Source: Candidatus Latescibacterota bacterium (lineage in GTDB: Bacteria; Latescibacterota; UBA2968). From it: a stretch of 64,000 bases of DNA. A program made the translations under genes and the position numbers. How positions within the stretch are numbered: the stretch's first letter is position 1; every line of letters begins with the position of its first letter. A model generated the notes under the pieces. The model saw only the letters and a list, made by a program, of their open reading frames with translations. It was not told the DNA's origin and ran no database searches. Where the stretch lies: positions 1,050 to 65,049 of the forward strand of contig JBLHJX010000004.1 in assembly GCA_047619225.1 (NCBI GenBank). Direction: 5' to 3'. This document shows, piece by piece, positions 29,598 to 33,700 of the stretch.

Positions 29598-29625
29598 TGA
29601 ACCGAGAGAATAGGTGTGGTGTCAT
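29598..29625 (+). promoter_or_regulatory. Putative ECF-type autoregulatory promoter
   Basis: TGAACC-N17-GTCAT ending 17 nt before the sigma ATG. Confidence 0.45.
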
Positions 29626-29642
29626 TGTAGCAGGGGATATCT

Positions 29643-30230
29643 ATGAATCTGTCGGATGCCGAGTTGATACAACGTATTATGAAGCGCGATTCTGAAGCAT
29701 TTGCGGTGTTATTTGATCGGTATATTGGCCAGGTTACCGATCATTTGACGCGGATGCTTCGGGATGCTGGGGCTGCCGATGATGTCGCGCAGGAAGTGTT
29801 TTTGCGTGTGTGGAATCGGGCAGACCAGTGGTCTGGTGCAGGTGCGTTTCAGGGATGGTTGTTTCGGATCGCGACGAATTTGGCGTTGAATCACTTGCGA
29901 GGAAAAAAGCGCAGGCGTGAACAGCCACTGGAAATGCCATCGATGTATGATGAAGATGAGGATGAAAACTTGGTTCCGGGTTGGATGATCGATCATGTGT
30001 CTTTGGGGCCCGATGCACACGTAGAGCAGTCTGAGCAACGGCAAATGTTGGGGCGGATGATTGCAGATTTGCCAGAGGAAAAACGGGAAGTGTTTGAGAT
30101 GGTTCACGATGAGGAATTGGGGCTTGGGGAAGTGGCCAAGCGCTTGGGCATTCCTGAAGGCACGGTGAAGTCGCGGTTGTTTCATGCACGGAAGAAGTTG
30201 GCAGATGAATGGAAACGGGTAGATAAGTAA
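29643..30230 (+). CDS. ECF RNA polymerase sigma factor
   Basis: Region 2 ADDVAQEVFLRVW...WLFRIATN; region 4 EVAKRLGIPEGTVKSRLFHARKKL. Confidence 0.92.
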   Translation: MNLSDAELIQRIMKRDSEAFAVLFDRYIGQVTDHLTRMLRDAGAADDVAQEVFLRVWNRADQWSGAGAFQGWLFRIATNLALNHLRGKKRRREQPLEMPSMYDEDEDENLVPGWMIDHVSLGPDAHVEQSEQRQMLGRMIADLPEEKREVFEMVHDEELGLGEVAKRLGIPEGTVKSRLFHARKKLADEWKRVDK

Positions 30231-30307
30231 AAAGTAAAAAGTGAAAGGCACCTACACTCGGCCTTTTCCGGTAAGGATTAGGTTTTATCACAACTTTTGA
30301 GATTGTT

Positions 30308-30490
30308 TGCCTTCGGCACGACTTACTTTTGTTCAACAGCAAACAAAAGTAAGCAAAAAATGCCGTCCCTCAGGTGCCGGGAAGACTGATTTTCCGCAAA
30401 TATCCTCAGTGAATGCACTGGATTATATAGCCTACGAACGCCTAGGTTTTTATGAATTGTGTTGCACCACGGAATCTGCGCGGAAAATCG
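30308..30490 (+). repeat. REP/REPIN-like structured intergenic element
   Basis: TGCCTTCGGC...CTTACTTTTGTT / AACAAAAGTAAG hairpin related to 36238-36288; GATTTTCCGC / GCGGAAAATC inverted repeat. Confidence 0.55.
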
Positions 30491-30583
30491 GTGATTGCTT
30501 AAGCTGATGGGTTTGATGTTATCGGATGAAGCTATTTTGTTTAGATAAGTTTAAGTGGGAAGACTTTTATAGGAGGTTATTTC

Positions 30584-33500
30584 ATGGCGATTGATGCGCG
30601 GGCACCTTGGCATAAGATTTCTTGGGATGGGTTTTTGCGGGAAGGGTTACCAAATTTGTTGGCAGATGCTGTGTCTTTGGAGGGGTATCGTGTTGAGGCG
30701 GTTGATACCTATCGTTGTCGGTTGTATTTATCTGTTAAGGGAAGTCTGGGCGTGATTGATGTGGTTTATGATGATATACCACAATGTGATGCATTGGGTC
30801 GGTTTCGTATTGATGGGCATACGCGGGTTGTTGTGGCAAGACCCACAGAGGTGGATTTGGAGAAGGCCGATATTTTGTGTGTGGGAGAACAAATATTGGC
30901 AGTTTTGGCTTCGCAGATTGGAGATGTGCCCGAAGGTTTGGATGGTGTGGATGCTGTTTTGGCGTGTTTACCCGTGTCTGAGTGGATACATGACTTTTTT
31001 CTGACGGAGCCCACGTCTCAATATTTACAGATGACAAATGCTGTGGATATGCATACCCATTTGCGACGCATTACGCTTTTCATGCTCTTGGGGGAAGCCG
31101 TTGATGACAGATATGTGGTGCACCCTTCGCAAGAAGGGCGTGTGGATTTGTTTTCGACACCTGAAGGGCCAAATATTGCGCGCATTTTTGAAGTGGCATT
31201 GGGCGCGACTATTCGGGGTGGTAAGTTGATTATTGTGGACAATTCGCCTGCGATGCGGTTGGGGTCAAATGCGTCTACGGTTCCATTTTTGGAACACAAC
31301 GATACCAATCGGTCGCTTATGGGGATGAACATGGTACGGCAATGGGTAGGTGTGCCGAACCCTGAGTGGCCACGTGATGAAGCGGGTGCTTGGCGCGATT
31401 ATTTTTCGCGATATGATGGGATGGAACCTGAGACGGAACCTGCATTGGTACAAACGGGTTGCGAAGAGGACAATCCTTATTTTTGGAAAGGGTATAACCT
31501 GCTGACGGCATTTATGGCGTGGGATGGCGATACGTATGAAGATGGGATTGTGATTGGTGAATCGGCGTCGAAGAAAATGATGCAGCCGCAACAGGTGGCT
31601 GTGGGTGATAAAGTGAGCAATCGGCACGGTAATAAAGGTGTGGTCACCCGTATTTTACCCGATGATGCAATGCCACAGCTGCCTGACGGTACCTCTGTGG
31701 AATTGATTGTGAGTGTGTGCGCTTTGCCTTCTCGTTTGAACATCGGACAATTGAGAGAAGCTGTGTTGGGGCGTGTGGCTAAGACGGAGGGCAAACCTGT
31801 GATTGTGCCGCCTTTGGGAGCGCCATCAATTGATGAGATACAAACGCGTTTAAAGGCCAATGGTTTGCCCGAAGATGGGATGGAACAGCTTACCTTAAAA
31901 GGGAAAGCTTTACCCCGACGGACAACTGTGGGGTGGGTTTATTGGGGTCGTTTGAGCCATAGGGTGTGTGATAAGATTCACTTTGGTGTGCGCCCAGACG
32001 AGCGACCACAACGATTGGGTGAGATGGAGTTTCTAGCTTTGCAAGAATCAGGCGCTGTGGCATTGATCAATGAATTTTTCAATACGTGTTCTACGATACA
32101 TCCAGACGCGGACTCATTGGCCGACCGTGTGGCAAAGGGACCGGTATCACCTGCAGGTGCACCTTCTGCGGGTTATCTTGCATTGGTCAATCGATTGGGA
32201 CATGATGGGGTTGTTGCTTCGCTTGGGGATGAGGGTGTGGCTTTTAAGGCAAAACGATCTGGTGATCTCAAGTTGGCACGTGCGGTAGCTCACCCCTGGT
32301 TGTCCTCGGGGATGTTGTCACATGTTGGGGTGGCGGACTCGGCTGAAGGAGAGGCTGTGCAAGAAGCCAATGTCCGATTGGAGCAGATGATTGCAAATGG
32401 TGCGCCCCAAGTGTTGGTTGAACGGGCAACAGATACGTTGTCTGAGCGGGTGCAGGAATTTTACGCCGCATTGATTACACGGGAACATCTGCGGTTTGAG
32501 TCTCGTGTGTTGTTCAGTGGTCGCTCGGTTATGACGCCGAATAAGCATTTTAAACATGATCAGATTGGTGTACCTGAAGAAATGGCTTGGGCGTTGTTTG
32601 GGCCGTTTGCCGCTCGGGAATTGGGCAGCGACATTGAAGTTAAAAAACGGTCAAAAAAAGCAGCACAAGTTTTGGATGGGTTGATGGCCAGAATGTGGGT
32701 TGTTGGGACGCGTGCACCGGCCCTGTCTCCTACTTCTCTTATGGCATTCCACCCCGTGCGTGTCGCTGGTGATGCGATTCAAGTTCCTATCTTGTGCTCC
32801 AAGTTAATGGATGGTGACTTTGATGGGGATCAATTGGCCTTGATTCTGCCTGTGACAGAAGAAGGTCAAAAATCTGCGCAAGATCATTTGTCTATTGTTG
32901 CACATTTGACACGTGACCCCAGTTTGATCGGGCGAGAAAAAGTGCATCCGATGCACGACGCGATGTTTGGGTTGGCGCATTTGAGTATGACGGACGCGGG
33001 GCTAAAAGAGTTGGAGAAAGTTGCGGGAGAATCCCTCACACGCAGGGGCAAGTTCTTGGATAAAAAGCATTTTATTGCCTTTCTGGAACGGGTGCGGGCA
33101 AATCATGGTGCCGAAGCGGCACTGGACCTTTCTGAACGTTTGCAAAGGAAAGGGTTTGAGGCGGCGCAACAAACGGGTGCTTCGATGGGGGCGTTTTTGG
33201 GCGGAAGCCTGGATCTGCCAGAACCACCTGAGGGAGACGGGGTTGATGAATGGCGGTCTTACGTGGATGAAATGGCCGCGGAAGTGAGCCAGTTTAATCA
33301 CTTTGAAGATGATGAATTTGGGGTGATTGCGATGTTGGCCGAATGTGGTGCGCGTGGGAATTGGGAACAGTTGCGGCAGTATGTGGCACCCCATGGGTTG
33401 GTATACAATGCTGCACGAGAGCTGACGCCTATTCGTCATGGATGGCGAGACGGATTGCCAGTCGATGAACTTTTGACCCGAACCGTTGGCGCGCGCATGG

Positions 33501-33700
33501 GCTTGGCCAGTGCTTTGGCAGAAATGATTGAAGTGAGTCGTGATGTGGCAAAACAAAGTGCTCCGAGCGGGTATGGCGTTTTGTCACGGGCGCGGCGTTC
33601 GGATAACCCGGGTGTTGTGTTTGCACGTGCGGCCATGAAAGGGGAAGTTGATTTGTTGGCCGATGCATACAGTCGGTTGTTTGTGGGGATTGTGGATTAG
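30584..33700 (+). CDS. Miniaturised single-chain RNA polymerase beta / beta-prime fusion protein
   Basis: Beta motifs in order ([51 protein letters not shown]), then beta-prime motifs in order (SGRSV, [24 protein letters not shown]); AGGAGG RBS. Confidence 0.9.
   Translation: [1038 protein letters not shown]

Follow-up and report, generated by a model that had tools for sequence, protein, structure and literature searches.

A 64,000-nucleotide stretch of contig JBLHJX010000004.1 from a Candidatus Latescibacterota bacterium (hereafter the window) carries, side by side on the forward strand, a gene for a sigma factor of the extracytoplasmic function (ECF) type and a gene for an RNA polymerase reduced to a single chain, which we call the mini-polymerase. 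The window is part of contig C4 in a metagenome-assembled genome (MAG) of 5.6 Mb, with 445 contigs and 89% completeness. An initial annotation, made from the letters alone, had offered two readings of the pair: a private two-gene transcription system, or a mimic of the polymerase core that sequesters the sigma factor. Comparison of related loci now indicates that the cassette is a conserved two-gene unit, consisting of a dedicated ECF sigma factor and a single-chain mini-polymerase.

The sigma factor and the mini-polymerase

The sigma factor matches the Pfam families Sigma70_r2 (residues 23-91, E 4e-17), Sigma70_r4_2 (residues 134-186, E 1e-15) and Sigma70_ECF. With 109 bits against a cut-off of 42.9, the protein passes TIGR02937 (sigma70-ECF) of NCBIfam, and its scores stay below every NCBIfam cut-off for a subfamily or equivalog. 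As it has regions 2 and 4 only, it is placed among the ECF (group 4) sigma factors. In the AlphaFold2 model, two helical domains are joined by a linker: sigma-2 occupies about residues 1-93, the linker residues 94-122 and sigma-4 about residues 123-194. Modelled alone, the protein has confident sigma-2 and sigma-4 domains, and the linker is predicted to be disordered, with a predicted local distance difference test (pLDDT) score below 50. Among 28 orthologues (alignment A2) the sigma factor is unusually conserved, with a mean column identity of 66%. The recognition helix of sigma-4 is invariant in this set, and the linker contains a motif in which P112 and W114 are each conserved in at least 90%. 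A linker that is conserved yet predicted to be disordered fits a segment that would become ordered only on a partner.

A cognate anti-sigma factor encoded alongside is typical of the ECF family, although not obligatory. Here the conserved neighbour is a polymerase instead. No Pfam match to an anti-sigma domain was obtained in the flanking open reading frames (ORFs), which is an absence of match and not proof of absence. In the 1038-residue polymerase itself, Pfam finds RNA polymerase domains only and no anti-sigma domain.

The mini-polymerase has an intact reading frame without stops and a calculated mass of about 115 kDa. Its Pfam matches are RNA_pol_Rpb2_6 (E 3e-38) followed by RNA_pol_Rpb1_2 (E 3e-13), with a weak match to Rpb2_3. 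It falls far short of all the rpoB and rpoC equivalog cut-offs, by about an order of magnitude, scoring for example 170 bits versus 896 for rpoB and 112 bits versus 963.5 for rpoC. It is a trimmed bacterial beta subunit fused to a trimmed beta-prime subunit, in that order: about residues 1-500 are derived from beta, a junction spans about residues 500-540, and the remainder is derived from beta-prime. An AlphaFold2 model built with 53 family members reached a pLDDT of 93.2 and a predicted template modelling (pTM) score of 0.91. Its fold matches are beta and beta-prime chains of bacteria in the PDB (E 1e-20 to 1e-25), and alignment of the family to bacterial beta and beta-prime sequences gave E values of 1e-40 to 1e-90.

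The two-barrel catalytic core is in place, with the beta-prime DxDxD triad, the basic residues of the beta barrel and the bridge helix. Among the 53 sequences, D745 and D747 are each conserved in 52 and D749 in 51. On the beta side, invariant or near-invariant residues include R243, N249, R252, E319, D320, K343, H348 and K351. Judged by these residues, the mini-polymerase appears to be catalytically competent.

Around this core, much of the canonical enzyme has been removed. Residues 52-86 weakly match an N-terminal beta motif, and residues 124-207 correspond to the fork, or rifampicin-cluster, region, before which some 330 beta residues (the lobe) have been lost. Residues 213-330 and 331-497 match the beta barrel. 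Residues 330 and 331 correspond to beta residues 797 and 926 of chain 8i23_C, with nothing between them, and the YEDG and GDK motifs are only 20 residues apart; because the barrel motif follows YEDG so closely, the flap domain is absent. The beta-prime half begins with a weak match to the region-A motif without any zinc cysteines. After the clamp region come the active-site barrel, the F-loop and the bridge helix, with residues 910-978 aligning to residues 721-791 of Bacillus subtilis beta-prime. Only 47 residues remain past the bridge helix, and these match, weakly but collinearly, the extreme C-terminal block of beta-prime (around residue 1318 of 1385), so the trigger loop and the jaw are absent as well.

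The clamp helices of beta-prime, which are the canonical dock of sigma region 2, have been kept. In the AlphaFold2 model they form a confident hairpin of two helices (residues 587-604 and 609-630), which a profile of the family places on the clamp helices of the ordinary beta-prime from a relative (single domain, E 5e-40). Conservation among the 53 sequences is high at N596 (44), R598 (46), L599 (46), P608 (52), L611 (49) and L619 (48). The best-conserved positions, namely N596, R598, L599, A607, P608, L611, L619 and V623, are identities to the canonical hairpin. Directly after the helices, the profile alignment shows a deletion of 25 residues relative to canonical beta-prime, and we take the deleted loop to be the rudder. 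Among the features of a sigma-dependent holoenzyme, the clamp helices are therefore present, and the beta flap with its tip helix is missing.

Table 1. Features of the sigma-polymerase locus, in positions of the window
Feature	Position	Strand	Basis or remark
Intrinsic-terminator-like hairpin and T-run	29472..29508	+	Stem of 13 pairs, 9 of them G-C, then TTTTTTGT
Second hairpin and T-run	about 29557..29596	+	Directly before the sigma promoter; read by eye, loop above the limit of the scan
ECF-type promoter: TGAACC (29598-29603), 17 nt, GTCAT (29621-29625)	29598..29625	+	Direct sequence reading
ECF sigma factor, 195 aa	29643..30230	+	Pfam, NCBIfam
Spacer, 353 bp, lineage-specific	30231..30583	+	Gap of 66 nt in a same-genus relative (L005); 30 nt or less in most loci
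Dispersed intergenic repeat copy, about 200 bp, resembling a miniature inverted-repeat transposable element (MITE) or repetitive extragenic palindrome (REP)	about 30307..30510		blastn against own genome
Shine-Dalgarno sequence AGGAGG, 7 nt 5' of the polymerase ATG	30571..30576	+	Sequence reading
Single-chain mini RNA polymerase, 1038 aa	30584..33700	+	Pfam, NCBIfam, AlphaFold2, alignments
Beta-barrel catalytic motif, residues 341-352	31604..31639	+	Alignment, conserved columns
Clamp-helix hairpin, residues 587-630	32342..32473	+	AlphaFold2, profile alignment
Catalytic Asp triad DFDGD, residues 745-749	32816..32830	+	Conservation in 53 sequences
Bridge helix, residues 960-991	33461..33556	+	AlphaFold2 helix; alignment

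The anatomy proposed in the initial annotation is largely borne out. The co-oriented gene directly upstream is an ECF sigma gene by Pfam and TIGR02937, the spacer of about 350 bp is indeed repeat-like, and an ECF-like promoter (TGAACC-N17-GTCAT) precedes the sigma gene. The mini-polymerase does occupy the position usual for an anti-sigma gene. The segment 32351-32464, described there as clamp helices, translates as quoted and falls within the confidently predicted hairpin.

Conservation of the pair and of its promoter

The association of the two genes was surveyed in 168 genomes of the phylum, accepting the polymerase at E<=1e-50 and the sigma orthologue at E<=1e-30. The polymerase is present in 66 genomes (about 40% of the phylum), the sigma orthologue in 64 and both in 62. 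In all 62, comparison of coordinates places the sigma gene on the same contig and strand, directly upstream and within 2.4 kb of the polymerase gene. The pairs are mostly translationally coupled, and conservation of the neighbourhood, suggested earlier as a check, is thus strongly positive. No genome in the survey has a sigma orthologue away from the polymerase. In the two sigma-only genomes, the gene lies at a contig end (G156) or is a fragment within a 930-contig assembly (G063). The four polymerase-only genomes comprise a gene cut at the contig start (G149), a C-terminal fragment (G135), an N-terminally truncated gene (G146) and an intact gene (G143).

Loci with wide flanks give the same result, with the sigma gene upstream in 20 of 20, including both paralogous pairs of genome G070. 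Eleven distant metagenome loci, whose polymerases share 35-45% identity, include eight with the sigma gene upstream, one without an upstream flank and two with unrelated genes. Among 38 distinct loci, 22 have a gap of at most 30 nt between the genes, five one of 31-120 nt and 11 one of more than 120 nt; stop and start codons overlap (ATGA or TGATG) in 12 of the 38, which are counted within the 22. Nine of the 11 wide gaps are due to an inserted gene. In eight of them it encodes an ATP-binding cassette (ABC) exporter, a half-transporter of 586-620 residues (ABC_membrane plus ABC_tran) on the same strand between sigma and polymerase. These exporter-bearing loci fall within L034-L041, representing genus g6 and one genome of g23 (L040). 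The ninth (L042) has a 381-residue ORF of unknown family in the place of the exporter. Lineage-level synteny aside, no further conserved neighbour stands beside the pair, and no alpha-like or omega-like partner is conserved there. The pairwise identities of sigma and polymerase are strongly correlated (r=0.96 over 34 pairs; none of 999 permutations reached this value).

The two pairs of G070, a genome of 8.4 Mb, lie at C1:1427414-1431177 and 3367758-3371728. Their polymerases are 46% and 38% identical to that of the window, and both pairs have the same promoter consensus.

The polymerase family is large and consists of proteins of about 1000-1060 residues; among 8000 candidates scored, 1134 proteins matched at E<=0.001. 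The best 120 matches are 42-84% identical, and all their source names are 'hypothetical protein' or bare lists of domains. Among the best 150 matches to representatives clustered at 50% identity, the family accounts for more than 100, ranked ahead of the first ordinary fused or long polymerases. In five of five complete relatives tested, a full-length rpoC passes its family cut-off, and the mini-enzyme is therefore an additional polymerase and not a replacement. In the incomplete MAG of the window, rpoC was not found, and rpoB is represented only by a partial copy at the end of contig C194. The family does not seem to belong to mobile elements or defence systems: the mini-polymerase had no match in PADLOC and none at 1e-30 in a plasmid collection, viral contigs yielded a single weak match of 47 residues, and phage records gave only partial, generic beta/beta-prime matches (0 of 30 cover 80% of the query).

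Fusions of sigma factor and polymerase had been suggested as a further check, and no convincing one was found among the homologues. The sole match to a longer protein was P0269, of 640 residues, on a metagenome contig of 2145 bp. It joins sigma region 2 and the linker to about 70 low-complexity residues and the N-terminus of the polymerase, and sigma region 4 is missing. From its sequence it looks like a read-through or a frameshift and not a true fusion. Fusion candidates in five high-GC relatives were also set aside, as the long frames upstream of the polymerase are out of frame with sigma.

The promoter before the sigma gene is conserved together with the pair. In 32 of 34 loci, the motif TGAAC(C/T)-N13/14-(C)GG(T/C/A)GTC occurs no more than 200 bp 5' of the sigma start, usually between -43 and -57. 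These loci include relatives whose polymerases share only 35-45% identity. In L046, one of the two loci outside this count, the motif stands farther upstream, at about 276 bp. The arrangement is the textbook ECF layout, with a -35 element of the AAC type, a -10 element of the GTC type and a near-fixed spacer of 16-17 nt. In the window, the stricter consensus TGAACC-N13/14-YGGTGTC occurs once, against 0.01 occurrences expected from shuffled sequences.

Two identical extra copies of one promoter-like 26-mer were observed in genome G010. They lie in a duplicated stretch of about 2.7 kb (C1:241700-244400 and 1473550-1476250; L144 and L145) that is 85-93% identical between its copies and has no long ORFs. 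This stretch is probably an RNA operon, with the promoter-like match arising by chance.

A proposed minimal holoenzyme and its alternatives

We favour, at a probability of about one half, a minimal holoenzyme, with the clamp helices of the mini-polymerase serving as the dock of sigma region 2. In this mechanism, the conserved ECF-type promoter would drive the cassette, and the sigma factor would act as the mini-polymerase's own initiation subunit, held through the retained clamp helices. The linker between sigma-2 and sigma-4, predicted to be disordered alone, would become ordered on the enzyme, and the two proteins together would initiate at sites of the TGAACC-N13/14-GGTGTC type. The first molecules of the cassette would have to come from read-through or from the sigma factor acting with the host core. 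On this account we infer binding of the two proteins, reading of the promoter by the mini-enzyme and not by the host core, DNA as the template, and also what the cassette serves. A minimal holoenzyme fits the strict co-occurrence, the overlapping genes, the conserved linker and the selective retention of the clamp helices, which persist even though the adjacent rudder and most other modules have been deleted.

Several findings weigh against a minimal holoenzyme. The beta flap, by which to our knowledge all known holoenzymes hold sigma region 4, is wholly deleted, and nothing else about the cassette is as paradoxical as its loss in an enzyme genetically tied to a sigma factor. The enzyme has further lost the zinc-binding cysteines, rudder, lobe and trigger loop. 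Because the flap and these other modules have been deleted, the canonical geometry of sigma-dependent initiation cannot simply be assumed. At the R-L-x-R position of the clamp motif, where 30 of the 53 family members have R, the polymerase of the window has Q. The promoter has ordinary ECF geometry, which is what a holoenzyme of the host core would read. Elsewhere no enrichment of the strict motif is seen: the genome of the window has five matches versus 12 for a reversed-pattern control, and five relatives together have 39 matches versus 18 in the control, their own sigma promoters being among the 39. The only conserved sigma target visible in these sequences thus appears to be the cassette itself, with no wider regulon seen. 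The complete genome G143 has an intact polymerase, no sigma orthologue at the survey threshold and none within 4 kb upstream, and the distant metagenome members L055 and L058 carry unrelated upstream genes. Sigma-less members also keep the clamp-helix motif, so that it may serve another purpose. Finally, correlated divergence and adjacency are expected of any linked pair and are no proof of binding. A complex predicted from the sigma factor (A2) and polymerase residues 234-1038 (A1), with residues 1-233 (N-terminal domain and fork) omitted, had a median score of 0.25 against a mark of 0.32; it was made without controls and is not used either way.

The private transcription system of the initial annotation therefore stands in part: a conserved, coupled unit with clamp helices is present, whereas the deleted flap and the ordinary promoter geometry argue against it. 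A bolder form of the same proposal, which we regard as tentative and somewhat less probable than the docking itself, is that the pair is a sigma-dependent transcription machine, and the smallest one known: two polypeptides of about 137 kDa in total, without alpha, omega, flap, lobe or trigger loop. It would have its own promoter code and run parallel to, and insulated from, the main RNA polymerase. Sigma region 4 would then be placed by something other than the flap, perhaps by the family-specific, beta-rich N-terminal domain or by the linker.

The strongest alternative, which we consider rather unlikely but serious, is that the sigma factor acts only with the host core. It would be a single-operon activator that switches on and auto-amplifies a mini-polymerase working without sigma. 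Such an enzyme might be independent of promoters or guided otherwise, for example as a drug-insensitive back-up, a maker of primers or R-loops, or an RNA-templated enzyme. The canonical sigma-2 and sigma-4 domains and the canonical -35 and -10 elements and spacing are all as expected for work with a host core, and the mini-enzyme has no flap with which to receive sigma-4. That only the cassette's own promoter is conserved, with no genome-wide enrichment, suits a single-operon switch, and an ABC exporter inside the operon (8 of 38 loci) recalls stress-response or drug-response operons. The intact polymerase that persists sigma-less in G143 is also consistent with it, and, according to the available part of the source (PMC5467207), no sigma factor is known for transcription by YonO and similar reduced two-barrel enzymes. 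However, overlapping codons and near-stoichiometric coupling are typical of binding partners; a regulator and the gene it controls can do without them. Action with the host core also leaves unexplained both the retention of the canonical clamp motif amid deleted neighbours and the strong conservation of the sigma linker, and a positive-feedback sigma factor with neither an anti-sigma factor nor another target would be an odd design. This alternative and the minimal holoenzyme are not mutually exclusive, because the first transcripts need the host enzyme or read-through in any case.

The second reading of the initial annotation, in which the mini-polymerase is a core mimic that sequesters the ECF sigma factor through its clamp helices in a negative feedback, fares poorly. 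The retained clamp helices and a polymerase in the usual anti-sigma position, translationally coupled to sigma and with no anti-sigma domain found nearby by Pfam, are what such a trap would lead one to expect. However, a decoy needs no catalytic residues, and a hairpin of about 45 residues would suffice, whereas the barrels, bridge helix and fork are conserved in proteins of about 1000 residues across more than 100 clusters at 50% identity. With the catalytic residues of both barrels nearly invariant in the family, sequestration as the sole function is improbable. That an ordinary ECF sigma factor merely happens to lie beside a degenerate rpoBC-like remnant, as the 353 bp and the repeat between the genes of the window might suggest, has next to no probability: conservation of the pair extends through the phylum and to distant metagenome contigs, the reading frame is intact, the AlphaFold2 model is highly confident and the catalytic residues are conserved, so that on this evidence chance adjacency is excluded. 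The probability left over from the minimal holoenzyme, action with the host core and the trap goes to some explanation not yet conceived.

As to the role of the cassette, the exporter within the operon and the missing inhibitor-binding modules suggest a function related to stress or inhibitors. Given these missing modules and the exporter of some lineages, the cassette could be an inhibitor-proof emergency polymerase. If the sigma factor does work with the one-piece enzyme, promoter-specific initiation needs far less protein than the five-subunit core and needs no flap. The pair would then be a natural minimal model of cooperation between sigma and core and a reference point for reconstructing the evolution of RNA polymerase, and it would offer synthetic biology a compact orthogonal set of sigma factor, polymerase and promoter. 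If the sigma factor merely switches the gene on, the question becomes what role a second, heavily reduced and conserved polymerase plays in free-living bacteria. Either way, a large family now labelled 'hypothetical protein', with more than 100 clusters at 50% identity and a presence in about two-fifths of the genomes of this phylum, offers experimenters a clear starting point.

Related systems and surrounding DNA

The closest comparison is with a canonical bacterial core bound to an ECF sigma factor, as in the Mycobacterium tuberculosis sigma-H complexes 5zx2 and 6kon. The pair of the window likewise has two double-psi barrels, the Asp triad, the fork, the bridge helix and the clamp helices, and the best PDB and NCBIfam matches of the mini-polymerase are bacterial. 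Its sigma factor likewise has regions 2 and 4 only, and its promoter is likewise of the AAC/GTC type with a spacer of 16-17 nt. A canonical core, however, has about 2500 residues of beta and beta-prime, plus alpha2 and omega, whereas the mini-polymerase is one chain of 1038 residues. The canonical core also keeps the lobe, flap, rudder, zinc-binding cysteines, trigger loop and jaw, all of which are deleted here. Full-length fusions of beta and beta-prime (PRK09603, PRK14844) have the same order as the mini-polymerase and are its top NCBIfam matches. These fusions have about 2840-2890 residues and all domains, and they are the only RNA polymerase of the cell, whereas the mini-polymerase coexists with rpoC and scores 186 and 173 bits against their cut-offs of 5372 and 4632.

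Reduced two-barrel enzymes are known from mobile elements. Orf6 of the yeast killer plasmid pGKL2 is a 982-residue Rpb2::Rpb1-like fusion. In the available part of its description (PMC2919709), it shares with the mini-polymerase the gene order, a similar size, the loss of about half the ancestral sequence and, at the junction, an insertion specific to the family. The same part presents it as an enzyme of eukaryotic descent, on a cytoplasmic linear plasmid and without a sigma factor, unlike the mini-polymerase. The beta barrels of killer plasmids also keep a flap insert, according to the part available of a second source (PMC7824862), and this insert is absent from the mini-polymerase. YonO of the B. 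subtilis prophage SP-beta is, as far as the accessible part of its report goes (PMC5467207), a processive DNA-dependent RNA polymerase despite massive reduction, and such reduction therefore does not preclude activity. Like the mini-polymerase, it is described there as a single-chain, two-barrel enzyme that lacks a trigger loop and has a mass of about 100 kDa. It is phage-borne and has almost no similarity to cellular subunits in the same account, whereas the mini-polymerase is strongly similar to bacterial beta and beta-prime. No YonO-like PHROG matched the mini-polymerase, which among PHROG families matched only full-size beta/beta-prime-like ones. Neither the phage or mobile context nor the similarity confined to barrel residues that marks YonO-like enzymes is seen in the mini-polymerase.

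In its arrangement, the cassette resembles operons of ECF sigma and anti-sigma factors, in which the sigma gene also comes first and the partner follows directly and often overlaps. Those operons have an autoregulated promoter upstream, and the promoter of the cassette may be used in the same way. The partner here differs in being a 1038-residue polymerase without an anti-sigma domain. No description of a chromosomal, sigma-coupled mini-polymerase family was found in the literature, although neighbourhood supplements on ECF groups and one further review could change that. A 2020 overview, in the part available (PMC7281927), gives single-subunit two-barrel RNA polymerases for phages and fungal plasmids only. 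The main text of Casas-Pastor et al. 2021, as available (PMC7826278), has 0 matches to words for RNA polymerase subunits, and its supplementary tables could list the pairing.

The spacer between the two genes of the window contains a dispersed repeat. A blastn search against the same genome returned 46 high-scoring segment pairs on 44 contigs including the spacer itself, and the 45 others lie on 43 contigs. The other copies are 72-90% identical and occur on both strands, with a perfect 12-bp stem inside. This repeat of about 200 bp probably breaks the assembly at many places. Its position indicates that it split an ancestrally tight sigma-polymerase operon in the lineage of the window, and the insertion is recent, because the gap in the same-genus relative is so much shorter (Table 1). 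The mini-polymerase gene retains its own ribosome-binding site. The predicted RNA fold of the spacer is unremarkable (z = -1.35), and an Rfam scan of the window gave no match.

Two hairpin-plus-T-run terminators stand between the sigma gene and the upstream operon, the first of which closes that operon. The operon consists of a DksA-like gene (27414-28379), whose product of 321 residues has a C4 zinc finger of the DksA/TraR type at its N-terminus (Pfam E 2.5e-8), and an overlapping ORF of 332 residues without a family match (28361-29359). These two genes lie directly upstream of sigma within the window's GTDB family. The 332-residue ORF alone is found there in one genome of a sister family, and the two are missing from other lineages. 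Atlas searches with the two upstream ORFs (321 and 332 residues) gave no usable match. Further upstream lie a gene for a stand-alone receiver-domain protein (25915-26271, forward strand) and a divergent gene for an OmpR-type response regulator (26378-27043, reverse strand). Both are just upstream of the cassette region and are not kept beside the cassette in other lineages.

Downstream of the cassette, the ORF at 35394-35768 covers no more of the DUF6886 model than positions 52-164 out of 164 and overlaps, in a different frame, an ORF of 86 residues at 35203-35463. The two may represent a frameshifted gene or an assembly error. The GC skew of the window, (G-C)/(G+C), is positive in all 2-kb bins (0.04 to 0.31) and exceeds 0.18 across most of the first 36 kb, which is unusually strong and one-sided.

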